From an uncultured delta proteobacterium (GTDB lineage: Bacteria > Desulfobacterota > Binatia > Binatales > Binataceae), in the NCBI GenBank assembly GCA_963749215.1, contig CAVVMA010000015.1, positions 277,915 to 341,914 of the forward strand: 64,000 nucleotides of DNA, in the 5' to 3' direction. Both the position numbers and the translations under genes were made by a program. Of this stretch, positions 38,761-56,224 are shown piece after piece (the first letter of the stretch is position 1; every line of letters starts with the position of its first letter). The notes below the pieces were generated by a model, which made no database searches, was not told where the DNA came from, and saw only the letters and a list, made by a program, of their open reading frames with translations.

Positions 38761-38865
38761 CCGGCCCCGGCGGCCTCAGCGTGGGTAGCGAATGGTGTGG
38801 AAAACGTAGCGGAAGGCTCGGAACCTGCGGGTCAACGCCACCGGCAAGTCAGCTTTGATTGCACG

Positions 38866-40020
38866 CTAACCCGGGATTTCCGTTTTGGTCTCCGCTTTCA
38901 ACTCGCCGTGTAGAGCCAACGGCCACCCTCGGCAAGGTTTTAACGGCGGGAGGCCGCAGGTGCCGAGCATGGCGCTTTCCCATGCGTCGATCTGATAGGC
39001 GGAGTTCATCTCGCAGCGCCCGGCATGGGCGAGGGCTGCGGCGGATAGGTCGTCATAGTGCCGTCCATGCTGCCAAAGTTTGCGAACGGTGGAGGCCCAA
39101 TCGGCAATCGGCTGCTCAGGGTCGAGAAGGATTCCGCCCGGTCCGACGGCCTCGGGCAGCCCGCCACGGGACGATGCGACGACAGGAATGCCGCTGATTT
39201 GGGCCTCGGTTGCGACTCGCCCGTAGGCTTCTTCCCACACAGACGGCGCAAGCAGAATGCCGCATTTTCCGTAGACCACGCGCATGTCGTTCTGCGGCGG
39301 CAGAAATGTGACATTGCGAAGCGCTTGGAGTTTCTGCATCAGATGTCGCCGGTTGTGGTCGAAGAGTCGCCACGATTCGACAAAGGTAAAGGGAATCTCC
39401 GGGCAGAGGCGGGCGATACCGAGAGCGATGTCACGGCCTTTGATGGGGAGGGGATTGATGAAGGTGACGTTTTCCCTCGTGCTTTGGGCCCTGTATCTGT
39501 CCGCGGAAATGAAGGGATAGATCACGCGCGGGTTGATGCCGAAGACAGCGCGGTACTTGTCCGCAGTGAACCGGGAGTTCGCAACGCAGGGAACGTTGCC
39601 CAGGTCCCCGAAGCGCCCACCGAGCAAGTGAAATTCAACGTTCTGCAACCGCATCAGAATGGGAATTTGCGCGCGCTTCGCTGCCAAAGCCATCCGTACC
39701 GGCGCACCAGACATGGCAACGATGAGTTCGGGCTTCTCTTTATCGGCCACATAGTCGAGCGCGTCCCACGGAAACCAGGTACGCCACACGGGATATTCGG
39801 ACCCGGCATCGCGAGACACCTTGCAGCCGGAGAGCCTCTGATTGATCTCCATCTTGATGCGTGATTTCCAGCCGACCAGACCGGCCGGCTTCAATCCAGC
39901 CAGTACGGCAACGCCGTGTCCTCTGCGTTTGAGGTCGATGCACAGTTCGTTCGCTGATGACTGCATACCGCCGCGTGACTGCGGAAGGTATGGACTGGCG
40001 GTTACGAACAGCACTCGCAT
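38866..40020 (-). CDS. Glycosyltransferase family 4
   Basis: YLPQSRGG, INP..IKG, PSVWEEAYGRVATEAQISGIPV. Confidence 0.9.
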   Translation of the reverse strand: MRVLFVTASPYLPQSRGGMQSSANELCIDLKRRGHGVAVLAGLKPAGLVGWKSRIKMEINQRLSGCKVSRDAGSEYPVWRTWFPWDALDYVADKEKPELIVAMSGAPVRMALAAKRAQIPILMRLQNVEFHLLGGRFGDLGNVPCVANSRFTADKYRAVFGINPRVIYPFISADRYRAQSTRENVTFINPLPIKGRDIALGIARLCPEIPFTFVESWRLFDHNRRHLMQKLQALRNVTFLPPQNDMRVVYGKCGILLAPSVWEEAYGRVATEAQISGIPVVASSRGGLPEAVGPGGILLDPEQPIADWASTVRKLWQHGRHYDDLSAAALAHAGRCEMNSAYQIDAWESAMLGTCGLPPLKPCRGWPLALHGELKAETKTEIPG

Positions 40021-40061
40021 GCGGTGTCGTTTTTGATGAAGGCGCAAACCCGCCCCGAGCA

Positions 40062-41180
40062 TCAGGCCACCGTCTGATCGCGGCAATGCCCGGTGAGGAC
40101 GCGCGACCACAAGGCCTGCAAGCTATCGACCTGCGCTGCCAGCGAGAATTTTGCGGCGATGCGGCGTCGCGCCGCCTGGCCCATTGCGCGCCCCAACGGC
40201 GGGTCTGCCAGCAGCCGCTGGAGCGCATCTGCCAGCGCAGCCGCGTCGCCAGGCGGCGTGAGCAAGCCGGTCACGCCGTCTTCGATCAGCTCGGGGATGC
40301 CGCCGACGCGCGTGGCGACCACGGGCAGTTCACACGCTCCCGCCTCCATCAGACTCACCGGCATCCCCTCTCGGTGGCTGCACAGGACCGCGACCGACGC
40401 GCGCCTGAGCCATTCAAGGACCGTGGCTCGTTCGGCGGCGCCAACCATCTCGACCAGCGGCTCTATTCTCAGTTGTGCGCGAATTCCGATCAGCTCATCA
40501 TGAGTGGGACCGTCGCCGATCATGATGCATCGGAACTCCACCCCGCGCGCCTGGAGCGTCGCGCATGCTTCGAGCAGCAGGCCCAGATTCTTCACGGGAT
40601 TGTGGCGCGCGACGCAGACGATCAGCCCGGATTCCCGAGACGAGGGAACCCCCGATGAATGGTCTCCGGGGGCGCGATCGGGTGGGGAAAATCGGATCGT
40701 ATCCACGCCGCTCGGGATCACGGAAAGGTGCTCGCGTGGGACGCCAAAATTCTGCGCGATATAGCGGGCGTTGGCTTCGGAGACTGTCACCACCGCTGCG
40801 GCGGATGCCGCTCGTTCCGCAAAATCCGCCGGTGGTCTTTCGTAGATATCGAGGCCGTGCGTAGTGAAAGTGAATGGCACGCCGATCGCGGAGGCCAATC
40901 TGCGCGCCGCTTCGGTGGGGTCCGTGGCGAAATGCGCGTGAATCAATTGCGGCCTGAACTTCCTGAGCTGCGCGGGAAACTTTTTCAGGCCGTAGACGGT
41001 AACTTCGTCCAGCTTGTCACTCGCGACGAAGTCGTGACGCAACTGATCGTGCGAATGCAGCAGCGACAGGATGCGGATTTCGACTCCGCGCCGGCGCAGC
41101 TCGCCGATCTCTGAGGCCACGAAGGTCTCGGATAGTTTCGGAAAGTATTTGAGGACGTAGGCGATACGATGCGCATTCAT
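40062..41180 (-). CDS. Glycosyltransferase family 4 (WcaL-like)
   Basis: FPKLSETF, IHAHFA, TTHG.DIY, EGMPVSLMEA. Confidence 0.92.
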   Translation of the reverse strand: MNAHRIAYVLKYFPKLSETFVASEIGELRRRGVEIRILSLLHSHDQLRHDFVASDKLDEVTVYGLKKFPAQLRKFRPQLIHAHFATDPTEAARRLASAIGVPFTFTTHGLDIYERPPADFAERAASAAAVVTVSEANARYIAQNFGVPREHLSVIPSGVDTIRFSPPDRAPGDHSSGVPSSRESGLIVCVARHNPVKNLGLLLEACATLQARGVEFRCIMIGDGPTHDELIGIRAQLRIEPLVEMVGAAERATVLEWLRRASVAVLCSHREGMPVSLMEAGACELPVVATRVGGIPELIEDGVTGLLTPPGDAAALADALQRLLADPPLGRAMGQAARRRIAAKFSLAAQVDSLQALWSRVLTGHCRDQTVA

Positions 41181-41462
41181 GGCGCTTCATCGGGTGAAAT
41201 TTCTTCCGGACGTAGATTCCGGGTCACGCCGAGTCGCTTCGGCTTTTTGCAGTCTGGACCGCGGCATCCCATCATGTCGACCACACTCACCCCCCCTGCG
41301 GCCTCGAGGCCGCCGGACTGTCCATACTGAAAACTCCCGCAAGTCCGAAAAACTAGAGAGTTTCGCGCGCGCGCTCCAATCCGCCGATCCTGGCCCGGCG
41401 CATCTGTTCTTCGTCTGCCATGTTCTCACACTCAAAGCCGCAAGAAAGCTCCGCCCACGAGC

Positions 41463-42227
41463 CTACGCTCCGAGCAGTTCGGCGAGGGCGGCCCGGTATT
41501 GCTCCGCCTCGGCCGCTTCTCTTAGATGCCTCTTGTCCTTGAACGATGCATCAAGGACAGTCTCGCCCTTTATGAGGTTGTCTCCGACAAACAAGATCGC
41601 AGCCGAGGGAACAGCGAAGTGATTCGACACGGCAAAGACGGTCGCAGCTTCCATTTCGACGCCGAGGTAGCCTTGGTCGGACCATGTCCTAACGTCTTCG
41701 AGGGTCTCGGCCATCATGGCCTGATTCGTTACGGTCGGTCCATGCCACACTTTGTGCTTCCGGTTAATGGCTCTCGCCAACCGAGCACTCAGCTCCTTGC
41801 TCGGAAAGTGCCTATGATCGGACGCCTGGGGTTGGTAGACCCTCGTCGTGCTTTCATTTCCGTGGCTGAAGGTGGGCACAACGAAATCACAGGCATCGAC
41901 CTGAGCGTCCAGGCCGCCGCAGCTCCCCAGCAGAATATTCTTTCGCGATCCGAACAAGCAGGCGAGATGCAAATACTCGGAGAGTCGTGCGCCGCCGTAC
42001 GAGACATCAAACCAGTAGCGCTTTCCGTCGACGACGAATTCGAGCATCCGTTCAAGAAAGTCGGCTAGCTGATTGAATTGGGCGACTCTCGTGCGCAGAG
42101 ACTCTTGAAGAAGTGAAATGTGTCGTTGCCTATTCCAGCCGCCCCAGATGAGCATTCCATCAAGTCGATAGGTCTCGGGCAGGTTGAAGAACGAGCGATA
42201 GTCGCTGGCGCTGTACGTCTTGTACAT
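41463..42227 (-). CDS. Nucleoside phosphorylase (PNP/UDP family 1)
   Basis: LGSCGGL, GVEMEAATVFAV, VGDNL. Confidence 0.82.
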   Translation of the reverse strand: MYKTYSASDYRSFFNLPETYRLDGMLIWGGWNRQRHISLLQESLRTRVAQFNQLADFLERMLEFVVDGKRYWFDVSYGGARLSEYLHLACLFGSRKNILLGSCGGLDAQVDACDFVVPTFSHGNESTTRVYQPQASDHRHFPSKELSARLARAINRKHKVWHGPTVTNQAMMAETLEDVRTWSDQGYLGVEMEAATVFAVSNHFAVPSAAILFVGDNLIKGETVLDASFKDKRHLREAAEAEQYRAALAELLGA

Positions 42228-42283
42228 GCCGTTTCACTCCTGAGTTTCTGTGGAGCTGGTTGCCAGATTTTTCTCTAGTCTTT

Positions 42284-42400
42284 TCAGGGAGATGAGACTC
42301 CGTGCAAAACTACCAGCCTCTCGCGCACCACGCCACGCGCCTTCTCGTCGTCACGTAGCGCGACAAACTTCGCATGCCTGAGATGGCCGGCCGGAGTCCA
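42284..42400 (-). pseudogene. Remnant of the C-terminus of an ATP-dependent DNA ligase (LigD-like)
   Basis: Manual translation WTPAGHLRHAKFVALRDDEKARGVVRE. Confidence 0.6.
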
Positions 42401-42805
42401 TCTCTTGTCGCTGCGGAAAACTCCAGCGTGCGATTCGCCTCGCTCTCGCACGCGCGTAATCGCGAGATTAGGGGTTTTGGGCTATAGCGGCTTCGCGAAA
42501 TTCTGGTTTTTTGTCACCTACCCAACAAAAAGCGCCAAACCGATTCTGGCAGTGGGCCAATCCGCGTCTTGTCGAGGCGGTGCCCGGTATCTGAATCCAT
42601 CTTTTTCAGGAAGTCGCCGCGCGCAGGGCCGCGCAGGCGAGGATGCGCGTGGAGTCGAGGATCGGAAGCTGAGAGTCCGCCTCGCCGACCAGCCGCGGAA
42701 TCTCGGTGCAGGCCAGGGCGAGAGACGCTGCACCGTTTGATTTGGTCTCGGTGATTAGAGGAGATTTACGTTGAAATGATCACCGGGCATGAACGGGAGA
42801 GCAAT

Positions 42806-43633
42806 ATGAGACTCGAAGGCAAAGTGGCGATCGTCACGGGATGCGCCCGCGAGCGGGGAATCGGACGGGCGATCGCGATGCGGCTGGCGTCCGAAGGCGC
42901 GGACATCGTGGCGGCGGATTACTGCCGCTCGATACCGGAATATCCCGACGCAAAGTTTGGCCAGATGGCGGAGCTCGAAGGCGTCGCGTCGGAGGTCCGC
43001 AAGCTGGGGCAGCGCAGTATCGCGGTCAAAGTCGATGTCACTGACGAGGCCGAAGTTACGGCGATGGCCAATGCGGCGATGAAGGAATTCGGCCGCGTCG
43101 ATATTCTTTGCAACAACGCAGGCGGGGGCGTTGGCGGCGGCCCGGTGATTCAGCAGACGCTCGATTCGTGGAACCGCACAGTGGGAATCAATCTTACCGG
43201 CACGTTTTTGTGCGCCAAACACGTTGCGCCGAAGATAATCGAGGGGGGACGCGGCGGCCGGATCATAAATACCGCGTCGATTGCGGGCAAGAGCGGCGGC
43301 CCGATGATGGCGGCGTATTCGGCGGCGAAACACGGCGTGATCGGTCTGACGCGAAGCCTGGCGCTGGAGCTTGGCGCATTCAAAATCACGGTCAACGCGG
43401 TCTGCCCCGGATTCGTGGAGACGCAACTGTTCGACGGGTTGATCAACATGGTCGGCGCGACGCGAAATCTCAATCGCGAGCAGGTGCTCAAGACATTTGT
43501 TCAACGGGTGCCGATGGGCAGGCTGGAAACGGGCGAGGACGTTGCGAACTTGGTCGCGTTTCTCGCGTCGGAGGATGGCGGGTACATGACGGGGCAGGCG
43601 CTCAATATCTGCGGGGGCGTCGAGGTGCATTGA
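42806..43633 (+). CDS. SDR family oxidoreductase
   Basis: TGCARERGIG, NNAG, YSAAK, VNAVCPG. Confidence 0.93.
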   Translation: MRLEGKVAIVTGCARERGIGRAIAMRLASEGADIVAADYCRSIPEYPDAKFGQMAELEGVASEVRKLGQRSIAVKVDVTDEAEVTAMANAAMKEFGRVDILCNNAGGGVGGGPVIQQTLDSWNRTVGINLTGTFLCAKHVAPKIIEGGRGGRIINTASIAGKSGGPMMAAYSAAKHGVIGLTRSLALELGAFKITVNAVCPGFVETQLFDGLINMVGATRNLNREQVLKTFVQRVPMGRLETGEDVANLVAFLASEDGGYMTGQALNICGGVEVH

Positions 43634-43991
43634 GGGCCGCGAGGGCGATCATTCGCCGGAGTTTTCAGTATGCACAGCCCTGAAAAGTCTCCGGACTCAA
43701 ATCCGGGCTCAAACTTTGCGTTTGCAAACCGCATGGTCTTTGTCCAAGTTTGAATCGGGTTTCAAAACGGAAATTCGTTCATGTGTCTGCTCTCGGGTTC
43801 GATGCCGTGGTTGCGCAGCCACTCGCGGCAGGCGCTAACCACAGAAGGAACGTCTGAGAATGGAATCGGCAGCAGGCACACGCCGTGACCCAGCCGGATC
43901 CGGCTCGTCACCTGGCTGAGCGTAGTGCGGCCGAACACATCCAATTTAAGCGAGTGTAATTTTGGCGAGTGTAATTTGCGGAGGTGGTGCA

Positions 43992-44945
43992 ATGCGCGAG
44001 CTTGAGCATCGATTCGTCAAAACCAATGGAATCCGTATGCACTATGTCGAGGCCGGCTCCGGCCCTTTGGTAATCCTGTGCCATGGCTTCCCGGAGTCGT
44101 GGTACTCGTGGCGCCATCAGATTTCCGCGCTCGCGCAAGCCGGCTTTCATGTCGTTGCACCCGACATGCGCGGCTACGGACAGACTGATCGTCCCGAGGC
44201 CGTCGAGGCTTACGACATTTTTCAGCTCACCGGCGATATTGTCGGGCTGGTGAACGCTCTGAATGAGAAACCTGCCGTCATCGTGGGGCATGATTGGGGC
44301 GCATGGATTACCCCATACGCCGCGCTTTTTCGTCCGGATCTGTTCAGAGCGGTTGGGCTGCTGAGCGTTCCGTACTTTCCGCGCATGAGCGTGAGTCCGA
44401 GCGAATGGGAGCAACAGAAATACCCGGGCAAGATTTTCTACCAGGCAATGTTCAGGTCTCCCGGCGCGGAGAGCTTTTTCCAGGCGGACGTCAGGGGCAG
44501 TCTGCTCAACGGCCTGTACTCCGCATCGGGAGATGCGGCTCCCGACGAACGATGGAATCCGGTGATCGATCCGAACGCGCCGCCGAGCGAACCGGCCTTG
44601 CCGAAGAAGCTTCCGCCATGGCTGACAGAGAAAGACCTGGATTTCTTCACGGGCGAATTCAAACGGACCGGCTTCCGAGGCGGTCTCAATTACTATCGGA
44701 ACGTGGATCGCAACTGGGCTCTCACGCCATTTCTCGACGGTGCGAAGCTGCTGCAACCGACGATTTTCATCGCTGGCGACAGAGATGCCGTGATCGAATT
44801 CTGGGGCGAGGAATTCAACGCCCTGGAAGCCAACGTTCCTAATCTGAGGAAGAAGGCGGTGCTTGCGGGAGTCGGTCACTGGACGCAGCAGGAGCGTCCG
44901 AGCGAAGTGAATGATCTGCTGATCGAGTTTTTGAAAGGTCTCTAG
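43992..44945 (+). CDS. Epoxide hydrolase-like alpha/beta hydrolase
   Basis: HGFPE, DMRGYG, GHDWGA, GHWTQQE. Confidence 0.93.
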   Translation: MRELEHRFVKTNGIRMHYVEAGSGPLVILCHGFPESWYSWRHQISALAQAGFHVVAPDMRGYGQTDRPEAVEAYDIFQLTGDIVGLVNALNEKPAVIVGHDWGAWITPYAALFRPDLFRAVGLLSVPYFPRMSVSPSEWEQQKYPGKIFYQAMFRSPGAESFFQADVRGSLLNGLYSASGDAAPDERWNPVIDPNAPPSEPALPKKLPPWLTEKDLDFFTGEFKRTGFRGGLNYYRNVDRNWALTPFLDGAKLLQPTIFIAGDRDAVIEFWGEEFNALEANVPNLRKKAVLAGVGHWTQQERPSEVNDLLIEFLKGL

Positions 44946-46143: not shown

Positions 46144-46395
46144 TGCAATTTCAAGCGCGGGTGCTTCCTTAAAACTGCAGCCGCTCCGAAGACACTCCAG
46201 TTTTAAGCGGCCGGCGTCAACCACGGCGAGCGAACAGCACGCGACGCATATAGTGACCACCAGCCGCATCAACCAGGTGATCTCAGAATGATCTGAGGTC
46301 ATCTGGCGAAACTCGGGAATTGTGGGCAGTTTGTGGGCACTCAAGCCACCTAAGCGGTTGTGCCAGTCGCCGTAAGTGCTTAGAAAATAAGGGCT

Positions 46396-46491
46396 GGAGG
46401 AGGAAAGGGCCCGGTGGCTCTACCGGTCTTCAAAACCGGCTTGGCGGGCATTACGCTCGCCGGAAGGTTCGACTCCTTCCCCCCTCCGCCA
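46396..46491 (+). tRNA. selC: tRNA-Sec (UCA)
   Basis: 8-bp acceptor stem (one A.C mismatch), 6-bp D stem AGGGCC/GGCTCT with 4-nt loop, anticodon loop CTTCAAA, long variable arm TGGCGGGC/GCTCGCCG, GAAGG-TTCGACT-CCTTC, terminal GCCA. Confidence 0.95.
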
Positions 46492-47779
46492 CAAACCTAC
46501 CCGAATTTGTTGCAGTTTCTTTGGCAGTGCCACCAAAGTGCCAACCGGAGGAGCGCACGTAGTCGCTAAGGCGGGATAGAGCAACGTCAACCTCGCTCTC
46601 CGCGCCGATGGCGTAGCGGCTGTACATACGTTCGGTCCACCCGCCCAGCTTCATCGCGACTCCGCGCGGCATTCCGGCGCGCTCGAAATTACGCGCGGCT
46701 GAACGGCGCAGGTCGTGAAACAGCAACCCAGGCAGGCCGACGTTTTCGCACGCGCGCTGCCAATGCTCGCGGAGCGCACTCAATAGGCCGCGCTCGCCAC
46801 TGGGTTTGAACAGCGGCGCTCCGGCAGGGTGGTAAAGACGCCCGCGCACTCTTGCCGGCTCACTAAAACAGAACACCCACGGCGTAATGACGCCGGCGCG
46901 CCTGAGCCGCTCGCGCACGGCCGCACGGCGCGCAATCACTTCGGCAAGCTCAGGATAGTGACCGTAGGGAACCGCGCGCGGCCGGCCGCTTTTCGTCGAG
47001 CGGAAATGAACCACGCAGGGTTCAGACTCGACATCCGCCCATGCGAGCGCAAGCGTCTCCATTTCGCGCGCGCCGCACAGAAAAGCGAAGTCGCCAGCAT
47101 CGCGCAAGTCGGGGTCGAGCCTTGCGCGCAGCTCGCCCCACTGACGAGCCTCCACGAAGCCGGAACGCACGTTCAAATTCTTTATCTGCGGGAACTCAGG
47201 AATCGACCGGACTAACCCGGCCACGCGCGCCAGATGATAGGCGCGGCGCGCCACGGACAATTCAAAATGAACCGTGTCCGGCGCGACTTGCTGTTTACGC
47301 TGAGCCGCATACTTCACCCAAGCCGCGTGCTCAACGTGCTCGGCACGATAACCCGAAAGCGTAGCGCACAGAGCGCGACCAGCGCGCTCGATTCGCTTCA
47401 CGGCTTTGAGTCCGCGCACCTTCGCATCATCGACCAGCAGGGCGATTAGCTGCTCAAAACTTGCCGTGCCCGGGAGCATCCCCGTGCTTGCCTGATAGAC
47501 CTTGAAGGCAAGAAGGTGCTCAGCCTCACGCCGGCTTTGTGCGCGTGTGCTCTCATAACGCCACTTGCCGTTGACGAGATACTTGATTTGCCAGTAGCGG
47601 GAACGAGCGCGCTTAAAAACCGAGCCGCCGACCGTCTTCAAGCGCCGCGCGCGAAGCTCAAGCAGATCGGCGGAAAATTGACGCGCTTGAGGACCAGTCG
47701 CGAGAATGAATTCCTCGCCTTTCTCAAGCGCACGTTGAAGGTCCGCGACAGCAGGGTCTTGGCACGCCGGAGCGCTCAC
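46451..47779 (-). CDS. Tyrosine recombinase / integrase
   Basis: Arm-binding-like GSVFKR..YWQIKY, GAREME (Arg), STK, FHDLRRSA, GW and RY catalytic residues; the 3' end runs across attL. Confidence 0.92.
   Translation of the reverse strand: MSAPACQDPAVADLQRALEKGEEFILATGPQARQFSADLLELRARRLKTVGGSVFKRARSRYWQIKYLVNGKWRYESTRAQSRREAEHLLAFKVYQASTGMLPGTASFEQLIALLVDDAKVRGLKAVKRIERAGRALCATLSGYRAEHVEHAAWVKYAAQRKQQVAPDTVHFELSVARRAYHLARVAGLVRSIPEFPQIKNLNVRSGFVEARQWGELRARLDPDLRDAGDFAFLCGAREMETLALAWADVESEPCVVHFRSTKSGRPRAVPYGHYPELAEVIARRAAVRERLRRAGVITPWVFCFSEPARVRGRLYHPAGAPLFKPSGERGLLSALREHWQRACENVGLPGLLFHDLRRSAARNFERAGMPRGVAMKLGGWTERMYSRYAIGAESEVDVALSRLSDYVRSSGWHFGGTAKETATNSGRFVAEGGRSRTFRRA
46458..46492 (+). 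repeat. attL core
   Basis: CGCCGGAAGGTTCGACTCCTTCCCCCCTCCGCCAC, identical to 53872-53906. Confidence 0.93.
46526..46545 (+). repeat. Probable integrase arm-type site (left)
   Basis: AGTGCCACCAAAGTGCCAAC, 19/20 identical to 53789-53808. Confidence 0.75.
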
Positions 47780-47929
47780 TTATGAATGCCTCCGCAGCCG
47801 CGCGAGCCAGACATGCTCGTACTCTTCGGGCGGGAGACTCTGACGCCAGCGCCGGCGTTCCAGCCTCGCACCGACGCACCAGGCCCGTCGACGACGCCGA
47901 ACCCCGACCGCGGCGACCAGGAGCGTCAT
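47780..47929 (-). CDS. Small basic protein directly upstream of the integrase
   Basis: 49 aa MTLLVAAVGVRRRRRAW...; its TAA abuts the integrase GTG and its ATG overlaps the TGA of ORF 47926-48153. Confidence 0.35.
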   Translation of the reverse strand: MTLLVAAVGVRRRRRAWCVGARLERRRWRQSLPPEEYEHVWLARLRRHS

Positions 47930-48431
47930 GGTTGTCCGCTCTCGCTCGGCTTGGTGGGCGAATTGTGATTACAGATTGCTTGCCTACTTGCCATAGGCGC
48001 ACGTTTCCGCCCGATACGGCCCATGCCATGCGGATACTCCTTGGGTTTCCGCACGACGGCGCTATTCCTGTGGGGCCAGCCTTCCGACTCTGCCCGCTCC
48101 GCCCGTGGTATGCGTCGGCGTGGCCACGGGTCTGACGGCCGACGGGCCGTCAACTAACGCCATTCCCAATCAACGCCTTGCCGCTATATGCTCTGGGGCG
48201 CTTGATAGACCCTTCTCTCTTACGCCGGTCGGCGCGCGAGAATCAAGAAGGCAAGCAGGCCGCAACGGCCACTGAGAAGCCCGACCTTTCCCTTGCGAAG
48301 CGCGCTTCAAGCGATTGAGGCGCGCTTCACTCTGCGGCGCTTCCAGCGCCCAAGCGCTAGACCGCCGCTACCGCTCCAGCAATCGCGGTCGCTCGGCTTT
48401 TCCTCGCGGTTCCGGCGCGACATAATCCAGC

Positions 48432-48920
48432 GTGATGCTGGCCAGACTGCTACAGCGCTCGCCGGACTCGCGCTCGCTTACCAGCGCGCTTCAGCGGCGA
48501 ATCGACGAGCTTGAAGCCGAGATCGCCATTCTGCGGGAACCTTCCGACGAAATGACTGATCGCCTGCGCCAGACGGTCCGTTTGGCGGATATGTGCCTCA
48601 CACGGTTGATCGCCCAGGTAGCACTGGCAGCCGACTCAGCACTTTCGGTCGGACGCGCTGTCGAGGGTTTCGCGAGCGCGATGCGCGCCCGACCGGCGCG
48701 CGGTCGTGCTGGCGGACTGGCGCGAGCACGGACCGCGTGGCGTTACTCTGACGGTACCTTCATGCCGGAGAGCGAGCGAGCGGCGACAGTCGAGGAACTG
48801 GAAACGCAACAGTACGAACGTTACGCGGCGGGCGGGCGCGCAAGGGCGATGAACGCGCCCCGTGCGCGAAACGGAAGATTTGTGCAACGCGACGGCGGTT
48901 CACTCGAAGGCCGGCGATGA
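48432..48920 (+). CDS. Hypothetical coiled-coil protein with two AGG.ARA..R..G.F repeats
   Basis: RAGGLARARTAWRYSDGTF and AAGGRARAMNAPRARNGRF. Confidence 0.6.
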   Translation: MMLARLLQRSPDSRSLTSALQRRIDELEAEIAILREPSDEMTDRLRQTVRLADMCLTRLIAQVALAADSALSVGRAVEGFASAMRARPARGRAGGLARARTAWRYSDGTFMPESERAATVEELETQQYERYAAGGRARAMNAPRARNGRFVQRDGGSLEGRR

Positions 48921-49096
48921 GGAAGAGGCGAGACAGATCGATCTGACGTTGCTTTCCCTGACGTTGCTTTCCGGTCCATAGGAAAGCCGCGCGGGAGCGA
49001 TGACCCGAACCGGCCCCTCCCGCCCGCGCGGGTAGTGTCTCAGTTTGATTTTTCATGCGCGTTATGGAACGTTCGGGCCGGAGGCGCGAATGGAGG

Positions 49097-49426
49097 CTAC
49101 GGGCAATTGCACGGCGGACGGAGCGCAACTTTTAAATCAGTCTCGATAGCCGTGCGCACGACCTTACCCCCGTGAAGGACCAAGCAGCAAACGTTTGTTG
49201 CCCGTTCGCGTAGCATAATGCAGTCCCAGCAAGGGTGATTCGCGATATTAACGTTCAGGCGCTCATTGAAATCCTCGGTCTCGCCCACATAAATTTGCGC
49301 CCATTTGCCGTGCGCCGCTGGCTTACAAAGAAGGTACACGCCAGGGTTCGTGCTGAACGCGCGTCCCAACTCGCACAATTCCATGCCGTAGACTTTGCCG
49401 CTGTAGCCTGTCCAGTTCACGTTCAT
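49097..49426 (-). CDS. Minimal GIY-YIG-like nuclease
   Basis: PGVY, IYVGE, ERL, H, IETDL and PPCN, the GIY-YIG catalytic pattern in 109 aa. Confidence 0.75.
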   Translation of the reverse strand: MNVNWTGYSGKVYGMELCELGRAFSTNPGVYLLCKPAAHGKWAQIYVGETEDFNERLNVNIANHPCWDCIMLRERATNVCCLVLHGGKVVRTAIETDLKVALRPPCNCP

Positions 49427-49504
49427 TGGATTGCCCTACCTTGCGCTTGTCGCGCTGATGGGGTTGGCGGCTTCGACTTAATTCCTTGATCGAGCATAGC
49501 CGAT

Positions 49505-49614
49505 CTGTCGCGCCCGCTGCCAATGTCCGGGGGTCGGGCGGGATTGCTCTCGCCCGGCCCCTTTGGTTGGACCATCTTGGACCGCCTTGGCAGGAGGGTC
49601 AGGGCCAACGACAG
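49505..49614 (-). ncRNA. Candidate structured RNA / leader upstream of the GIY-YIG gene
   Basis: Nested complementary pairs: CTGTCG/CGACAG, CTGCCAA/TTGGCAG and an inner ~14-bp hairpin (49530-49561). Confidence 0.35.
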
Positions 49615-50089
49615 GAATGCTACCTCTTTGTGATGGCGCTCAACAGGCAGTTGACAGCGGGGAATCCACAGCGGGAATTCGCATTATCCACAGTCTGCAT
49701 TCAAGCGCGGCAATGCCACTTTCTGAGCCGCTTCCCATTCGTCCACGATCCCGACCATATCCTCCGTTCAGTGACCCCGGCTTCCATCGCTAGGGTAAAC
49801 GGCGCTTGCGCGCAAAGCGCGCCGAACATTCAAACTGAGACACTACCCCCGCGCGCAAGGGGCTGGTCTCATTTCGGGGATTAGAGAATACTGCATATAG
49901 ACGTAATATGCGCCGATACGGAGGGCAATGCGCCGGTCAGGCGGGCAATCGAAATTATACCCGCCTCGCCGCGAAATCTCGCATAGGGCGGTTCTCTTCG
50001 TCGTCACCTTTGGTAGCGACGGCGGCGTGCTGGTATTCCGGTGCGAAGGGCTAGCCGGAACAACGGCGAACGAAAAGGAGGAGCCAGAA

Positions 50090-50785
50090 GTGAGAACATG
50101 GAATGACGAACTGCGCGCGCAGATCGAAGCGCTCAGCCGGGCAGTTGCATCCAAGCTCTGGTTGCTGGAAGACAAAACCCGCAGCACCCCGCGCCTGAGG
50201 TGGCCGACGGATGGCAAGTCTGAGCCACGGGTCAGCGAACAAGAGGCGCGCATTCTCTTCTGCCAAGAGTTGGAAAACTCGCGCTGGTATTACTCCGTGG
50301 AGACGCCTACGCAGGGAAAATTTCGGGAGAAGGGAGCGAAGAAACTGAGCGCGAGGGTAGACCTTAGCCTTTACAAGGGCATCGACTCCGAACCATGTGT
50401 AAACATAGAGTTCAAATGCAACAACCCCGAAAGCTCCGGCTTCGAGCACGACTTTGAGAAGCTGCTACGTGAACAACCTTGCTCAGTCTGGTTTGGCGTG
50501 ATCGTGAGTCAGGCCCGCCTTCCACGGGTCTTGGAAAGCATTCCAGCCGCATTCGCCAGGTTGGATACGAATCATAAGATTCTCTCACCCCTCAATCGCG
50601 AGGTGTTGTTCCAACTCTGCGTTTTGGAGAGTGGCCGTCAGGAACTTTTCCAAGGTCGCCTGCAATTCGATGGCACGCTGGGCGATTCGCTTGAGAACAT
50701 TAACCGATTCTTCAAGTGGGAAAGCCTTCGGCTTCCAAGCGGCGGATGGAAACGCTTTGCGCCTGGCGGAGAGTTGCTCCATTGA
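50090..50785 (+). CDS. PD-(D/E)XK restriction-endonuclease-like protein
   Basis: SEQE helix, SVETPT, RVDL, IEFK, DFEKL; GTG start after AAGGAGG. Confidence 0.7.
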   Translation: MRTWNDELRAQIEALSRAVASKLWLLEDKTRSTPRLRWPTDGKSEPRVSEQEARILFCQELENSRWYYSVETPTQGKFREKGAKKLSARVDLSLYKGIDSEPCVNIEFKCNNPESSGFEHDFEKLLREQPCSVWFGVIVSQARLPRVLESIPAAFARLDTNHKILSPLNREVLFQLCVLESGRQELFQGRLQFDGTLGDSLENINRFFKWESLRLPSGGWKRFAPGGELLH

Positions 50786-50974
50786 TGGCTCGCGCTGGTA
50801 GCGCTGCATGAATGACATAGACGGGGCTGTGCTTGCGAGGGGAGATGGATCGCACGTTCAAATCGTACATCGACAGGCTTCATCCCAAGTTGGATGAGTT
50901 GATGAAGATGGCAGCAGGCAAGATAAACACGTTGCCCGTGAACGCGCCTGCGCGGTTTTTTTAGGCGGCTCAGA

Positions 50975-52325
50975 GTGGCGATACCAAGACGTAGACAGCG
51001 CGGGAGGGGTCGGCGCAATCCGCGTCTAGCCGCGATTGGTCCTTGTGGACCGCGTGAGCACCTACTGACCAAGCGCAAGACGACGGTCGGGAGCGCGAGC
51101 AACAATGACTTGGTCGTCCTTGGCGGCAGGGTCTCTCGCTGTCATGCGCTGATCAAACGGCGGCTCGGAAGCTACAGAGTGATCGACCTTGAATCGACCA
51201 ACGGTACTTTCATCAACGGCCGGCGCGTCCAAGCAGCGCCGATTGCCAGAGGCGACGAGCTACGCTTCGGCGCAGTGCGGTTTGCGTTTCTGGACCCGCC
51301 CGGAACCCGCGAGCTGAAAAGGCCCGTTTCCCTGACCACGACACTCGGGCTCCTGCTCGTAATTTTCGCGGCTGGGTTCGCACTCACGCAACACTTCGTC
51401 AACCGCGTGCTTTCAGACAAGTTGTTGCGTACGCAGCGGACGGAATCAGAAAACGAAGCGGCCCTTTCGAGACGGGTTGCAACTGCCGAGGCTGAGGCAA
51501 CTAAGGACAGCGCTCTCGCGAAGCAGCCGGACTGGCTTTGGCGCATAAACTACTACCGACGCATGGCGCGTCTTCCCGCCGTCACGGAAGACCCTTCCTT
51601 GAGCGACGGCGACTTCAAGCATTCGCGCTACTTGGTCAAGCGGATGATCCGAACTGGTGCGCCCGCCGTAGGGGCGGAAGCGCACTCGGAAGACCCAAGC
51701 GACCCTTGGTACACGCCCGAAGGTTTGCAGGCAGCGCAACGCAGCGACGTTCAAGGGGCGGGAGAGTTTTCAGGCGTAGACGCTGTGGACGCTTGGGTCA
51801 ACGTTCCCCTGCATCGCCTGTCAATCCTGTACCCCTATCTGCTGAGCGCGGGTTATGGCTACTATTGCGAATCGAGAAGCTGTGAGGCAGCCCTCGCAAC
51901 CCAGCCACAGCCATCGTTCCCCCGGACGAGCACAGGACCATCGCCGGTTGAGTTTCCCCCCGATGGTGCCTCTGTACCAATCGGCAGATTTAGCGGCGCG
52001 GAATGGCCTGAGCCGCTTACGAGCTGCCGCGGCTACAGCGCGCCGGTCGGCTATCCTATAACGCTTCAATTTGATTGGCGCTTAGTGCCGCAGCTTTCGG
52101 CATATTCGGTGAGCCGTGACGGGAAGCCCATTGAAGTCTGCGGCTTCGACTCGTCGAACTACAGAAACCCTGATACATGCTACTCAAGCCTGGGCTCGGA
52201 ACGTGTTGAGGGGCTCTGGCGCGGTGGTGTTGATCCCACGTGAGCCCCTCGCTCACCAAGCAAGGTACACCGTGTCCGTCACCGCAAGCGGGCAAACCTA
52301 CGTTTGGAATTTTTCGGTCAAATAA
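50975..52325 (+). pseudogene. FHA domain + TM + CAP(SCP) domain protein, frameshifted near 52175
   Basis: FHA motifs VG..SRCH..STNGTFING; CAP motifs INYYR, HSRY, AHSE, HRL. The C-terminus continues in ORF 52116-52325 (LIPREPL..YTVSV). Confidence 0.75.
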
Positions 52326-52519
52326 CTCGGGCCGTTTGTCGGCCAAACCGCGTGCAGATGTTTCCTCTTTGGTCAAGTGAAGCAGAGCGGTAGGCGAGCC
52401 GAACCGCGCGACGCTCCGCCAAGAGAAGACTCTTGGCCTTCGCGCCGCATCGCGGCCCGGCTCGCGATCCAAAATTAGTGTAAGGTGCGTGGTCGCGCGT
52501 TCCTGTGTGGCGACTTCGA

Positions 52520-52581
52520 GGGGCAACTTTCCCGCCTTGCTCTCCAATCAGCGCTTAGGAGAGCAAGGGGGAAAGCTGCTC
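52520..52581. other. Long hairpin downstream of rep, candidate single-strand origin
   Basis: GGGGCAACTTTCCCGCCTTGCTCTCC pairs with GGAGAGCAAGGGGGAAAGCTGCTC; further stems lie at 52394-52466. Confidence 0.45.
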
Positions 52582-52603
52582 TGGCGAGAGCGGTGACGGC
52601 CCG

Positions 52604-53443
52604 CTAGGCCGCCGGCGCATCGGGAGCCGCGCGAGCGAACGCATTGCAGCCGGCCACGAAGTCGGAGGACGCGCCGCAGCGACAAAAGGTTGTACGGCAG
52701 ATACAACCCGGCGCACGCTCATGCGGCGGCGCGTCGGCCATGCGGATCACAAGCTGCGGGTCGGGGAGCGGGAGCGCCGGCGGCGCGACCGGCGACCAGT
52801 ACCAGTCGGGATTCTTGTCGGGGCGCTGCATTTGCGCCCGCGCCTTGCGGCTCGCACCCCATCGCCGCGCGCCCTTCGGCCAGTCAGATTGCGACGTTGT
52901 GTCTTTGGTCGCATACCGGAGCGCTTTCAGCGCGTAGCGATGAACGCTCTCGCCGCGACCGTGGCCGTTGCGCAACCGCGCCCCGGCTCCGACCCGCGAG
53001 ATGTTGACAACGCGCCCGAAGCCGCACGCTTCGGCTGCGTCGGCAAGCCATGCCTGATCAACCCAATCCTCGTCCCACAGAACGTTGAGATGGAGACGCC
53101 CTGTCCCGCTTCCGTGCGTGTTATGCTCGCGTGCCCAAGCCAGCGCGAAGCGATGCCCGAATTTGCGGAAGAGCCGCTCTTCGAGGCGACGCTTGGCGGC
53201 ACTCTGCGCAAGCAGGTTCTCTCGTTTGTTCCAGTCTCCGCGATCGGGCGGCATCGTGAACACCACCAACGCGCGCACGCCCTTCAGTTGCTCCCAGCGC
53301 TTCTGCACCGCGCGCCCATACACCCACGCGCAGTATTTGCACTCGCGCCAAGACTTGCAGCGCGCGGCGATCACTTGGCCCGTTAACTGATTGACGAGCA
53401 CGCCACGCCCGCGCTCGCAGCGCGTGCGATGGACTTTCTCCAT
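52604..53443 (-). CDS. HUH rolling-circle replication initiator (Rep)
   Basis: N-terminal C..C..CxxC, motif I VFTMP, motif II LHLNVL, motif III YALKALRYATKD. Confidence 0.85.
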   Translation of the reverse strand: MEKVHRTRCERGRGVLVNQLTGQVIAARCKSWRECKYCAWVYGRAVQKRWEQLKGVRALVVFTMPPDRGDWNKRENLLAQSAAKRRLEERLFRKFGHRFALAWAREHNTHGSGTGRLHLNVLWDEDWVDQAWLADAAEACGFGRVVNISRVGAGARLRNGHGRGESVHRYALKALRYATKDTTSQSDWPKGARRWGASRKARAQMQRPDKNPDWYWSPVAPPALPLPDPQLVIRMADAPPHERAPGCICRTTFCRCGASSDFVAGCNAFARAAPDAPAA

Positions 53444-53576
53444 CGCGTTGCGCAGCGCCCGATTCTCGCCGCGCCACCAACGCTCAAGCGCTTCCTCGAT
53501 CTGTTCAACAGTGAGGCTCGGCAGATCGAGCCGCGAAGTGAACGAAGCCAGCTTTGCAAGTACGTCGCGCGTGCAC

Positions 53577-53783
53577 TCAGCTCAGTTCGGGTAGGTCGAA
53601 ATCGAAGTCATAAGACGCGGAGTGCGGGCAGCCGCACGCGTGGCCAGAATGCTCGCATTCGTGGCCATCGTGTCCGCGCGCGCATGACTCATCGCAGTTG
53701 ACCGCGTGTCCGACCGCGCACAGGCCGCGCGCGAGTGCGAGGAACGGTCTCTCGCTCTCTCCGATACCGGCGTGTTCGTCCAT
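53577..53783 (-). CDS. Small Cys/His-rich hypothetical protein upstream of rep
   Basis: MDEHAG...CAVGHAVNCDESCARGHDGHECEHSGHACGCPH... Confidence 0.35.
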   Translation of the reverse strand: MDEHAGIGESERPFLALARGLCAVGHAVNCDESCARGHDGHECEHSGHACGCPHSASYDFDFDLPELS

Positions 53784-53788
53784 CGGCG

Positions 53789-53808
53789 AGTGCCAACAAA
53801 GTGCCAAC
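53789..53808 (+). repeat. Probable integrase arm-type site (right)
   Basis: AGTGCCAACAAAGTGCCAAC. Confidence 0.75.
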
Positions 53809-53871
53809 TACTAGCCCCGTTTTTTCGCCCGTCTTCCGGCGCTCGACCCTTGAAAATGCTTGGGTTTTTTG

Positions 53872-53906
53872 CGCCGGAAGGTTCGACTCCTTCCCCCCTC
53901 CGCCAC
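53872..53906 (+). repeat. attR core (duplicated tRNA-Sec 3' end)
   Basis: Identical to 46458-46492. Confidence 0.93.
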
Positions 53907-53971
53907 GCAATTGAGTCTTCCGTCACAATCGCCCGCGCGGCGCGAAAATCCGCACCCGAGCGTCCCTGAAG

Positions 53972-54379
53972 TTACCAGCTTTCAGTCAAAATCAGCACCT
54001 GGCCCTCGAGCCCGGCCTCGCGATGCACGCCGATCGCCTGCACTTCCGGCGAGGTCGCGATGCGCTGGAAGGCAGCGCGTGACGGATACTCCATTATCGC
54101 GGCGACGTCCCACACTTCACCCACCTCTCCGATCACCACGCCCTTGACTGTGCCGACGAATAATATGCTGCCGCCCTCGCGCTCGACGATTTTGCTCATC
54201 GCGGTCGCATAGCGCTGGTAGGCTTCGAAGCCCGAGATATCGTCGGGCCGTCCGTCCTTGTACAACGCCTTCTTGCGGAACTTGAGCAAGTTCAGCATCG
54301 CGATTGGGGTTGGTGAGGGGTCCTGAGCGAGTGCCCGCAATCCGTCGGCGGTTGGATATACCGCGTTTTCTACCTTCAT
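53972..54379 (-). CDS. DUF1330 family protein
   Basis: MLNLLKFR, AYQRY, WDVAAIMEYPSR, HREAGL. Confidence 0.85.
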   Translation of the reverse strand: MKVENAVYPTADGLRALAQDPSPTPIAMLNLLKFRKKALYKDGRPDDISGFEAYQRYATAMSKIVEREGGSILFVGTVKGVVIGEVGEVWDVAAIMEYPSRAAFQRIATSPEVQAIGVHREAGLEGQVLILTESW

Positions 54380-54413
54380 CTCTCTCCCTCCGGCTGATCT
54401 GAACGAGCGCTGC

Positions 54414-55319
54414 TTATTTGGTTGAGGCTGTGAAGGCGTGCAGCAAGTCGGCAATTTCCTGCGGTTTATCCTCCTGCAGGAAGTGGCCCGCGTCCGTGAT
54501 GGTCACGTGCTTTTGGCCTTTGGCCCCCGGAACACGCTCCTGAAAGCGCGCCTCGCCGCCCTTGGTAACCGGATCCGAATCGCTGAACGCCGTCAGAAAG
54601 GGGTTGGTGAAACCCTCCAGAACCTTCCATGCGGCCTTGTTCTCGGCCACTGAGGCGTGTTGCGGCGTAATCGGGACCAAGGCCGGAAAGCGGCGCGCGC
54701 CCGCCTTGAACGATTCGTCCGGAAAGGGAGCGTCGTAAGCTGCTTTTTCGGCCTCGCTCAGGCCACGGCGGCATCCCATGCTGACGATCTGCCCGATAGG
54801 CAACGTGGGCGTGTTCTGGCTGAATTCGAGCCATCGCATGAAAGCGTCGGAAAATCCCTCGCCGGTCGGCAGCCCGGTATTGGCGACCACTACGCGCGCG
54901 AATCGATCAGGAAACGCGGCCACCAACCTGAGGCCGATCAGACCGCCCCAGTCCTGGCAGAAGAGCGTGATGTCCGACAGGCGCATCGCGCTGAGCCAAT
55001 CGCTCATCCATCGCACGTGCCGCTCGAAGGTGTAATCAAGCGGATCGGCCGGCTTGTCCGAGCGGCCGAAGCCGACCAGATCCGGCGCGACGACGCGATG
55101 GCCGCGTGGGGCGAGGCTCGCGACGATCCGGCGATAGAGAAACGACCATGACGGTTCGCCATGCAGCAGCAGCACCGGCGCGGCGCCGCGCGGTTCCTCG
55201 TCGATACAGCAAATCCGGATCGCGCCGGCATCCGGATCAGGCACTTCGAGATAGTTGGGCGCGAAAGGAAATTCCGGCAGTCCCTGAAATCTCGAATCGG
55301 GCGTTCTGAGTATCTTCAT
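54414..55319 (-). CDS. Haloalkane dehalogenase
   Basis: [35 protein letters not shown]. Confidence 0.93.
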
Positions 55320-55414
55320 GTTACATCTCCGTCAGGCCGGGCATTATCGCGACCGGCAGTTGACATCACGATCCGCAAGTGGCTATTGCCAATCATAATA
55401 CTCGACCTGACGGT

Positions 55415-56224
55415 TCAGGACGATTTCATGGAGCGTTCCGCGGCCCGCGCGGCGGGCACTATGCGAAGAGCGTCGGGTAGCAGCGGCAACGTCAGCCAGA
55501 TTGCGGCCTCAGCGGCGTCGGACAGCATCCGGCTCGTGGAGTTCCATTTGATCCCGAACTGCTCGCGCAGCGGAGGCGGCAGCAGACCGGCCATCACGAC
55601 ATTGATCGCGTCGAAGGCGAATGACGGTATCAGTGGAATCGGCGGATAGAGGATGCTGCGAGCCAGCTCGCGCGCGGTCGCGCTCACCCGCACCGGTCCG
55701 CGCTCGATCATGTCGCGCATGTAACGCTGAAATTCGCCGAGCCCGGACGGTATCAGCGCGTCGGGAATCCTGAACAGGCGCGCGATCGTCTTGCTCTCCT
55801 GGTAGAACTGGCGCGCGTCACGCGCGCCGAGATCGCCGACCAGGCGCTGGTAGACCACCATCACGGTGTCCACCAGCGTCGCGTGCACCCAGAACAGAAG
55901 CTCGGGGTCGCGTGCATTGTAGGAAATACCGCCTGCAGGTACATCGGCGCCGGCCGGGCTTCGCACCCGCGCGTGAACCGAATCGACCTGCCGGTAGGCC
56001 GCCTCCGCCTGCTCGGCGGTTCCGAATGCAAGCGTGAACATGGGCTCGATAGTCCGGCGCAGCCGCCCGAAAGGATCTTGCTTGAAGTGGCTGTGCTCCG
56101 CGACCGCCGCGGCGACCGCCGGATGAGCGATCTGCATCAGGAGCGCCCGCCGGCCGCCGAGCAACATCACGGCTTCGCGCTGGAGGCGCCAGGCAACCCC
56201 ATTTGGGTTCATCAGTGTCGTCAT
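55415..56224 (-). CDS. Oxygenase MpaB / DUF2236 family protein
   Basis: GRRALLMQIAHP.V, HS.F..DP..RL.RT, Y.A.DPELL.WVHATL. Confidence 0.9.
   Translation of the reverse strand: MTTLMNPNGVAWRLQREAVMLLGGRRALLMQIAHPAVAAAVAEHSHFKQDPFGRLRRTIEPMFTLAFGTAEQAEAAYRQVDSVHARVRSPAGADVPAGGISYNARDPELLFWVHATLVDTVMVVYQRLVGDLGARDARQFYQESKTIARLFRIPDALIPSGLGEFQRYMRDMIERGPVRVSATARELARSILYPPIPLIPSFAFDAINVVMAGLLPPPLREQFGIKWNSTSRMLSDAAEAAIWLTLPLLPDALRIVPAARAAERSMKSS

Follow-up and report, generated by a model that had tools for sequence, protein, structure and literature searches.

A compact integrative element, probably of rolling-circle type, in the tRNA-Sec gene of an uncultured Binataceae soil bacterium

The stretch of DNA analysed here, called the window throughout, comprises 64,000 nucleotides of contig CAVVMA010000015.1 (assembly GCA_963749215.1, positions 277,915 to 341,914 of the forward strand) and belongs to an uncultured soil bacterium of the Binataceae. 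At the gene for its selenocysteine tRNA (tRNA-Sec) lies a segment of 7,449 bp (46458-53906 of the window), for which the original prediction had proposed a compact, self-integrating rolling-circle replicon with nuclease cargo and with neither virion nor transfer genes. Our analysis shows that this segment is a real and well-delimited integrative rolling-circle element, with the following ends and core genes.

46396-46491, plus strand: tRNA-Sec gene, anticodon TCA, the integration target (ARAGORN; Rfam RF01852, 69.1 bits, full model 1-91).
46458-46492, no strand: core of the left attachment site (attL), a 35-bp direct repeat, 100% identical to the attR core (repeat search).
53872-53906, no strand: core of the right attachment site (attR), 35 bp (repeat search).
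46526-46545, no strand: arm-type sites on the integrase side, 20 bp, with two direct 9-mers AGTGCCAMC.
53789-53808, no strand: arm-type sites on the Rep side, 20 bp, with two direct 9-mers AGTGCCAAC.
46451-47779, minus strand: tyrosine integrase of 442 residues (PF00589, E 3.3e-9; phrog_1, E 1.6e-31).
48432-48920, plus strand: core accessory protein of 162 residues, with homologues in relatives, an N-terminal coiled coil and two basic repeats GGLARA..R..DG.F.
52604-53783, minus strand: Rep, a rolling-circle replication initiator by fold, conserved motifs and profile-profile homology, frameshifted at 53580 in the assembly.

The perfect 35-bp attL and attR that had been predicted in tRNA-Sec are present and correspond to the 3' end of the tRNA, the repeated core consisting of its last 34 bases and one further base. 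The tRNA-Sec gene, which is intact after integration, is the sole tRNA that ARAGORN finds in the window, and an Rfam scan of 46300-54100 returned nothing besides it. The arm sites near the two ends, predicted to be nearly identical, are 95% alike over their 20 bp. Among the eight delimited elements described below, the AGTGCCAMC motif occurs at both ends of all six that carry a window-type integrase and in neither of the two with other integrase types, and it lies equally far from the ends in L057, L059, L061, L062 and L049. The integrase, also predicted to be intact, is full length and scores above the Pfam cut-off (37.2 bits against 27.1 for PF00589); its catalytic residues, R..K..HxxR..W..Y, were read by eye in the translation (GAREME, STKSG, HDLRR, GGW and YSRY). 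The final 13 codons of its gene cross the att core into tRNA-Sec, and in the integrated form the frame stops two codons beyond the core, within the tRNA. On an excised circle the same frame would extend into the Rep-side end and gain 19 residues, so that the two states of the element may yield integrases with different C-termini.

The open reading frame (ORF) of Rep in the assembly (52604-53443, minus strand) encodes 279 residues, and the layout of the protein comprises a Cys/His-rich N-terminal domain, a zinc ribbon, motif I, a variant of the HUH motif (histidine, hydrophobic residue, histidine) reading RLHLNVL, and the tyrosines Y170 and Y177. Conserved across the family are CKSWRECxYC (resembling a zinc ribbon), FVVFTMP (motif I), REH, GRLHLNVLWD and the two tyrosines in RYATKCLRYASKD; C29, C35, C38, T63, E106, H107, L119, N120, Y170, Y177 and K180 are invariant in the alignment and H118 is nearly so. 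The window Rep has no match in Pfam (none at E <= 10), PHROGs, NCBIfam, PADLOC or PDB (by sequence and by profile). Its 62 homologues in metagenomes and metagenome-assembled genomes (MAGs) are all unnamed, the few labelled ones being from Binataceae or Terriglobia, and no relative was found in 72,556 PLSDB plasmid records, 50,697 GenBank phage records or 2.9 million IMG/VR contigs. The suspicion that the family might be undescribed is therefore confirmed by these searches: it has no library model and no named homologue among the 62.

A more distant relationship emerges from profile searches. The Rep family profile retrieved 247 clusters among 1.84 billion representatives, and 86 of the 90 distant hits that were scanned match PF23343 (REP_ORF2-G2P) at E <= 0.01, 70 of them reaching its cut-off; Rep_1, RepSA and Phage_GPA appear as secondary Pfam matches. 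Within the Rep alignment itself, one of 22 members touches PF23343 (E 0.011), and no member gives a direct above-cut-off match to a curated Rep model. Alignment of the Rep family with 24 PF23343-positive proteins by hhalign gave a probability of 99.93% (E 6.3e-36, 181 columns); these 24 proteins had themselves been retrieved with the Rep alignment, and the independent part of the comparison is their Pfam membership alone. The alignment pairs PHLHVL of the PF23343-positive set with RLHLNVL of Rep, and therefore the Rep family has H-L-N at the HUH position; it also pairs YxxKYLxK with the two-tyrosine helix (167-179 of the structural model), in which Y170, Y177 and K180 are the invariant residues. 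By transitive homology, Rep can thus be assigned to the rolling-circle initiators, with PF23343 as its nearest named family.

The structural evidence is weaker than the sequence evidence. In an AF2 model of Rep (predicted local distance difference test, pLDDT, 66), a beta-alpha-beta-beta-alpha-beta core is followed by a helix. The top four of 48,161 PDB chains compared by structure are HUH proteins, namely SIRV1 ORF119 (Z 8.1), AAV5 Rep (7.2), Helitron (7.2) and MVM NS1 (6.5), with root-mean-square deviations of 3.4-4.7 over 112-150 residues. Foldseek against PDB returned nothing at E <= 0.001, only generic ferredoxin-like folds among which were a few Reps. The earlier description of Rep as a zinc-finger HUH protein is thus upheld indirectly, by the fold of the model, motifs and profile homology, but not by a direct library match, and its HUH motif reads H-L-N.

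Most Rep homologues have a Cys/His-rich N-terminal extension. Contigs from two soil sequencing runs of different studies, X1 and X3, match the window free of mismatches over 53482-53781 and 53516-53749, respectively, except that both lack one base, at 53580; the break in Rep therefore reflects either a strain variant or an error of the assembly. Read without this base, Rep is a single ORF of 392 residues that begins at an ATG at 53783 and is colinear with the homologue P0002 (69.5% over 377 residues). Rep is intact in the population.

To define the family, 14 genome loci and 23 metagenome loci were compared. A Rep match, in one copy per genome, was found in 16 of the 165 genomes of the order and in none of the four other genomes of the genus; in a phylum-wide sample, none of 400 other genomes, of which only four are from the same family, had one at E <= 1e-10. 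Sixteen distinct loci were assessable, in that Rep, which L057 has in two pieces, aligned over at least 180 residues and either the integrase was in view or the sequence extended some 2.5 kb downstream. A tyrosine integrase stands beside Rep in 12 of these (the window, L026, L027, L031, L039, L049, L051, L055, L057, L059/60, L061 and L062/63), so that the pairing in the window recurs. A tRNA gene adjoins ten of the 12 Rep-integrase loci. The original prediction had suggested a search for the same pair with variable cargo at selC; the tRNA is Sec at five of the ten loci, including the window, and the other five lie at tRNAs for Gly, Phe, Arg, Met and Lys (one each). Eight elements are delimited by direct repeats of 21-53 bp derived from the tRNA 3' end, and they measure 3,411, 3,444, 3,683, 3,876, 4,069, 4,722, 5,517 and 7,449 bp. 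The element in the window does not appear to be a deleted remnant of a larger prophage or of an integrative and conjugative element, as its relatives are smaller (3.4-5.5 kb). The core that the elements share consists of Rep, a homologue of the 162-residue protein and the integrase.

Integrases 52-61% identical to that of the window adjoin Rep in L027, L049, L051, L057 and L059-L063. In all, three integrase types are found, and they are combined with different Rep clades. In the Rep tree, the window Rep stands next to elements that have another integrase and lie at tRNA-Gly, whereas the remaining elements at tRNA-Sec group in a well-supported clade of their own. This mismatch between the Rep tree and the integrase and tRNA indicates that replication and integration modules have been exchanged. 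The phylogeny and the profile comparison of Rep that had been suggested as checks therefore yielded, respectively, module exchange and the 99.93% match reported above. The L031 element is adjoined by another integrase gene, which is broken (L031 10554-11703), as expected when insertions occur in tandem at one tRNA.

Evidence bearing on mobility comes from metagenome contigs and from genomes of the same genus. A contig of run X1 joins position 46457 to 53872 and runs to 54204 free of mismatches, as would an empty tRNA-Sec site in the same strain background; of the attB and attP junctions that had been proposed as a check, this is one attB-like case. In run X3, a contig agrees with the Rep-side end over 53720-53904, with 5 mismatches, before it continues into a different flank. 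In G048, of the same genus, tRNA-Sec carries neither the element nor the sequence corresponding to 53907-55432, and no exact empty site was found in the genus, the right flank (53907-55400) and tRNA-Sec lying apart in G048-G051. G051 has a decayed copy of 3.2 kb that lacks Rep. It retains the attL junction of the window copy and the arm sites, together with a fragment of the integrase, a gene for an FHA-CAP protein and an attR core in which two bases mismatch. Between the genome of the window and G051, shared parts of the element are 90-95% identical and host flanks 67%-91%, a comparison that does not decide whether transfer was recent.

Besides Rep and the integrase, the core contains a partner protein. 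Non-coding and small features of the window copy are as follows.

48025-48268, no strand: conserved non-coding block between the integrase and the gene of the 162-residue protein, a candidate origin or regulatory region.
52330-52547, minus strand: small conserved ORF downstream of Rep, coding status uncertain (residues 6-72 of a 163-residue ORF, 52056-52547).
52529-52574, no strand: hairpin between Rep and the small ORF, with 17-nt arms that are 88% complementary and a 12-nt loop.

Homologues of the 162-residue protein occur in L026, L031, L049, L051, L055, L057, L067 and L037, and a short form of 74 residues in L062. In the family alignment (eight sequences), the basic GGLARA..R..DG.F repeat occurs twice; in the six longer members a coiled coil lies ahead of the repeats, and the short form of L062 keeps a single such motif. 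Across the elements, the partner protein ranges from 74 to 165 residues and is basic, with a coiled coil in the longer forms; comparison of the 162-residue protein with Pfam and PDB profiles gave coiled-coil noise only. Over 245 nt, the non-coding block is 86% identical to L026 and contains an indel that breaks the frame, the flanking proteins being 45-66% identical; this comparison and the block itself rest on the unpublished genome G157. The block is present in two of the 165 genomes of the order, in both cases within the elements, and has no Rfam match. The small ORF has tblastn matches in L026 (54% over 67 residues) and L030 (54% over 35 residues) and no match in Pfam, PHROGs, NCBIfam or PADLOC. 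CTTGAT, the nick motif of the pC194/phiX type, was considered as a nick site and rejected: it lies inside the conserved block of the window and of L026, yet it is placed inconsistently in ten other elements. The strong hairpins noted in the original prediction do not stand out, as the element has eight terminator-like sites against 8.4 +/- 2.8 in shuffled sequences and its hairpin frequency is not above theirs.

Taken together, the anatomy of the element, the homology of Rep, the recurrent Rep-integrase pairing at tRNA genes and the empty-site contig lead us to the interpretation, to which we give a probability of about 60%, that 46458-53906 is an element that integrates site-specifically and retains a rolling-circle replicon resembling that of plasmids. 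The integrase would bind the AGTGCCAAC arm sites at both ends and recombine the 35-bp core that the element and the tRNA-Sec 3' end have in common, whereby the element could enter or leave the chromosome while the tRNA stays whole; such integration and excision at the core, guided by the arm sites, is supported by the anatomy and by the comparison with relatives. On the excised circle, Rep, as a putative HUH-fold nuclease in which H-L-N replaces H-U-H and which has a Cys/His-rich N-terminal domain, a zinc ribbon and two tyrosines of the catalytic type, would nick one strand at an origin and prime rolling-circle replication. The best candidate for this origin may be the block at 48025-48268, and the small basic coiled-coil protein may act as a Rep-linked accessory factor. 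In the window copy, a three-gene core of 3.4-4.7 kb would have been extended by an FHA-CAP gene belonging to a host family and, subsequently, by the 2-kb insertion and its two nuclease-like genes. Scans of 14 ORFs against Pfam and PHROGs, and of 12 against NCBIfam, found no Zot/pI ATPase, coat protein, canonical relaxase or FtsK/TraB, as predicted. As the element has no transfer or virion genes, its movement between cells would need outside help. The prediction of a compact self-integrating element with an initiator of the rolling-circle replication (RCR) type and no virion or transfer genes is supported.

Several observations weigh against this interpretation. Four of the 16 assessable loci (L029, L030, L032 and L034) have Rep without an integrase, among housekeeping genes; these loci and the G051 remnant indicate that decay is common, and the window copy could therefore be inactive. 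In the assembled window, the N-terminal extension of Rep is encoded in another frame (ORF 53577-53807), split off by the frameshift, and in the metagenome element L057 (10001-10647) Rep is split by another frameshift, inside the catalytic domain. The literal HUH motif is absent, as the family reads R-L-H-L-N-V-L on the strand at 116-123 of the model; HUH variants in which the second His is replaced occur in other Reps, such as HUQ in those of circoviruses. The Z scores of the structural search are only moderate, since a best Z of 7-8 is usual for models that have no clear match, and the nicking of element DNA by Rep is predicted from homology. With regard to the origin, the conserved block is common to the window and one relative only, it folds no better than its shuffles (z -1.0 and -1.3), and no non-coding 12-mer other than the arm sites is common to 11 elements. 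With regard to mobility, the empty-site contig has only 23 letters on the tRNA side and could be a mis-join through the 35-bp repeat, the typical assembler word length of ~31 being slightly below the length of that repeat. The circular (attP) junction, the other half of the proposed check, was found in none of the contigs of four runs, which cannot show rare forms or depth, and none of the 23 metagenome contigs (L047-L069) has a terminal overlap.

Of the other explanations, the one we take most seriously, while considering it unlikely, is that of an integrative mobilizable element (IME) in which the Rep-like protein would be mainly a non-canonical relaxase acting at an origin of transfer (oriT) with a helper conjugation system, replication of the circle being a by-product. 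According to a review of IMEs, 118 of 144 streptococcal elements of this kind encode relaxases related to RCR initiators, 35 of these 118 occur without a coupling protein, and Rep_1 and Rep_trans proteins serve both as initiators and as relaxases (PMC5704250). Distant relatives of the window Rep also score on Rep_1, and one on the Relaxase family; moreover, the element has its own integration and excision module, with an integrase and att sites, and no transfer genes. On the other hand, neither VirB4 (PF03135) nor a coupling protein (PF02534) was found in the genome of the window, which is 86% complete, and VirB4 was found in one of five other carrier genomes, marginally (22.3 bits). These MAGs are 82-96% complete, and helpers on plasmids or phages may be missing from them; as MAGs are often without plasmids, a missing helper is weak evidence against an IME. 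The cases documented in that review are from Firmicutes and depend on TcpA-type coupling proteins (PMC5704250). If the element were instead the satellite of an undiscovered filamentous or other single-stranded DNA (ssDNA) phage, the circles made by Rep would be packaged by a helper and integrated by the element's own integrase rather than by XerCD. Satellites of this kind exist, as RS1 and TLC in Vibrio are tiny, helper-packaged, Rep-bearing integrated elements without morphogenesis genes. Consistent with this, PF23343, the nearest named family, comprises the ORF2/G2P replication proteins of inoviruses and plectroviruses, and the element is very small, with Rep, a small basic protein and no morphogenesis genes. 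We nevertheless regard a satellite as improbable: the Zot/pI ATPase family PF05707 is absent from all six genomes searched (that of the window and five carriers, in which a helper could be missed at the completeness given above), so that the helper phage suggested in the original prediction did not appear; Rep has no relative in the IMG/VR and phage collections; and no conserved small hydrophobic coat-like ORF was found among the elements.

It is marginally less probable again that the element is an inactive relic that was once mobile and has since become fixed at tRNA-Sec, where it is decaying and its Rep has lost function. The frameshift of Rep in the assembly, the interruption of the operon of the 162-residue protein and FHA-CAP by the 2-kb insertion, and the other relics (the G051 remnant and the integrase-less Rep loci) would fit such a history, but there are perfect 35-bp att cores, intact arm sites and a full-length integrase, the frameshift base is missing from contigs of two studies and the flank of the empty-site contig matches perfectly. 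Finally, a Y2-type HUH transposase of the IS91/ISCR or Helitron-like kind, moving by rolling-circle transposition with the integrase as an incidental neighbour, would share with Rep a zinc-binding N-terminus, an HUH-type core and two tyrosines; Helitron is among the best structural matches (Z 7.2), and one distant Rep relative scores weakly on Zn_Tnp_IS91. This explanation is disfavoured and highly improbable, because in eight elements the ends fall exactly on direct repeats derived from the tRNA and on arm sites, there is one copy per genome, and the nearest sequence families are initiators of plasmids and phages, not PF04986-type transposases.

The combination of an integrase with an RCR-type initiator is an established architecture, known from streptococcal IMEs, the integrative and conjugative elements of actinomycetes (AICEs) and cryptic integrated elements of archaea. 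The initiator RepSA replicates the excised circle in AICEs, and RepSA (PF20199) is a secondary, weak match of distant Rep relatives. AICEs such as pSAM2 also resemble our element in having a tyrosine integrase at a tRNA gene together with an RCR initiator (PMC2440964). Our element is two to three times smaller than AICEs, and its 14 scanned ORFs contain neither the FtsK-like TraB translocase nor the spread genes that AICEs carry. Streptococcal IMEs with relaxases of the Rep_trans/MobT, Rep_2 and PHA00330 types are likewise small; they have a site-specific recombinase and variable passengers, their att sites often lie at the 3' end of a tRNA gene, their HUH protein is of the RCR-initiator type, mating-pore genes are absent, and some are without a coupling protein (PMC5704250). 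For this reason, the statement in the original prediction that the integrated RCR elements already known carry a translocase gene or morphogenesis genes, or else rely on XerCD, is too restrictive. Our element differs from these IMEs in its host, which is of the Binataceae and not the Firmicutes, in its unnamed Rep family near PF23343 with H-L-N, in its three-gene core of 3.4-4.7 kb with a novel basic partner of 74-165 residues, and in that no helper conjugative system was detected. With inoviruses and plectroviruses it shares, by transitive homology, the nearest named Rep family, and it is unlike them and their satellites in having its own tyrosine integrase at a tRNA rather than XerCD at dif, with no pI/Zot in six assemblies. 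The cryptic integrated elements of Thaumarchaeota, such as NitAQ6f-E2, are also a few kb long, delimited by an integrase and equipped with an RCR initiator, with no virion or conjugation genes (PMC6563490); they differ in living in archaea and in having a Rep related to proteins of the SNJ1/IS91 type, and there is no evidence that the elements descend from a common ancestor. Lacking a translocase, our element does not qualify as an AICE, and lacking pI it does not qualify as an inovirus; it matches the description of an IME or of a cryptic integrated element, with no helper detected.

The novel aspects are the clade of Rep, its partner protein, the extreme compactness of the elements and the lineage that hosts them; the family is a new one of a kind already known. 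In a search of the literature, with supplementary files outside its scope, we found no description of such elements for mobile genetic elements of Binatia or for rolling-circle elements at selC/tRNA-Sec. This would be the first mobile-element family for Binataceae, an uncultured soil lineage, and its Rep represents an unnamed, well-conserved branch of the rolling-circle initiators in which the second His of HUH has become Asn and a Cys/His-rich domain has been added. The family also illustrates how far an integrative replicon can be reduced, namely to an integrase, Rep and one small protein in 3.4 kb, and how such a minimal core acquires passengers; the known picture of how elements of this type work is unchanged. 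If Binataceae are cultured, the three-gene core with its defined att site could seed genetic tools. A bolder proposal, which we find quite doubtful, is that these elements are the smallest bacterial self-integrating rolling-circle replicons, a three-gene lineage of 3.4-4.7 kb that would be specific to Binataceae-like soil bacteria, with an H-L-N Rep and Cys/His-rich N-terminus, and that would spread as ssDNA circles by a new non-conjugative route such as an unknown ssDNA virus, vesicles or transformation.

The passenger genes of the window copy lie between the gene of the 162-residue protein and the small ORF downstream of Rep.

48921-50974, no strand: 2-kb insertion peculiar to the window copy, between the gene of the 162-residue protein and FHA-CAP (from comparison with the unpublished genome G157).
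49022-49856, no strand: inverted-repeat cassette around the GIY-YIG-like gene, with 33-nt repeats (49022-49054 and 49824-49856) that are 88% complementary.
49097-49426, minus strand: GIY-YIG-like protein of 109 residues (Pfam GIY-YIG, E 0.073, below cut-off; PADLOC PDC-S14, 1.2e-7, partial).
49928-50785, plus strand: orphan protein of 285 residues with a PD-(D/E)XK-like order of residues and 17 distant unnamed homologues.
50975-52243, plus strand: FHA-transmembrane-CAP protein of 422 residues (Pfam FHA, 1.4e-17; CAP, 4.5e-7).

L026 is colinear with the window for Rep, the small ORF, FHA-CAP and the 162-residue protein. In L026 the last two genes are ~10-20 nt apart, and 48921-50974 of the window is therefore an insertion. 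The FHA-CAP gene, for which the predicted domains are clear, occurs also in L026 (45%) and in the G051 remnant (87-89%). FHA-transmembrane-CAP proteins form a large, lineage-wide family in the order: full-length paralogues are found in all 165 genomes, usually in several copies, and one copy lies elsewhere in the genome of the window (C10, 83330-84529). The copy in the element therefore belongs to a host gene family and was probably captured from a host.

The GIY-YIG and PD-(D/E)XK assignments made in the original prediction are retained only in a weak form. The GIY-YIG-like protein falls below the cut-off of PF01541 (13.8 bits against 22.6), its match to PDC-S14 covers residues 4-71 only and lies in the N-terminal part of models of ~300 residues, its motif GVY..x11..YVG was read by eye, and it has no sequence match in PDB. 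In the family of the 285-residue protein (17 sequences), RVSEQE, ETPT, S..D, E.K and D..KL..E are invariant, including E104/E106, D145, E161 and K163, an order that resembles PD-(D/E)XK, and marginal Pfam hints come from HSDR_N_2 (E 0.067) and RE_TdeIII (E 0.093), each in one of the 17 members. Defence nucleases, which had been proposed as cargo of the family, are not a family trait: both nuclease-like genes lie in the insertion that is absent from L026, and PADLOC recognises no defence system in the element.

The 33-nt repeat motif GGGTAGTGTCTCAGTTTGA recurs in the genome of the window; it was recorded on five other contigs, and the locations named are C17:102601-104443 (two copies), C18:205668, C11:165383 and C9:22123. 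The pair on C17 encloses an unrelated ORF for a membrane protein of 242 residues. These cassettes, which contain passengers but no transposase, look like a family of non-autonomous insertion cassettes. A paralogue of the 109-residue GIY-YIG-like protein in the same genome (C16:64730-65156; locus L090, 1500-1829), with 85% nucleotide identity, has as neighbours ffh and a fragment similar to an IS1-type transposase (E 0.0037). A perfect 15-bp tandem duplication, CTGACGTTGCTTTCC, occupies 48943-48972, just past the gene of the 162-residue protein and at the insertion's left edge.

Outside the element, the 1.5 kb between attR and the conserved flank (53907-55432) contain two genes, for proteins of 160 and 301 residues. 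In G048 the counterpart of this segment is 105 kb away from tRNA-Sec, which there abuts the homologue of the sequence from 55433 onward, and the region downstream of tRNA-Sec is therefore variable within the genus. Further upstream in the window, 38964-41276 (2.3 kb) has several copies in G048 (93%, 83%, 82% and 68% identity), set in surroundings (the remainder of 24001-44000) with nearly no DNA match in G048 or G051. Because of these several copies, 38964-41276 is probably an insertion sequence.

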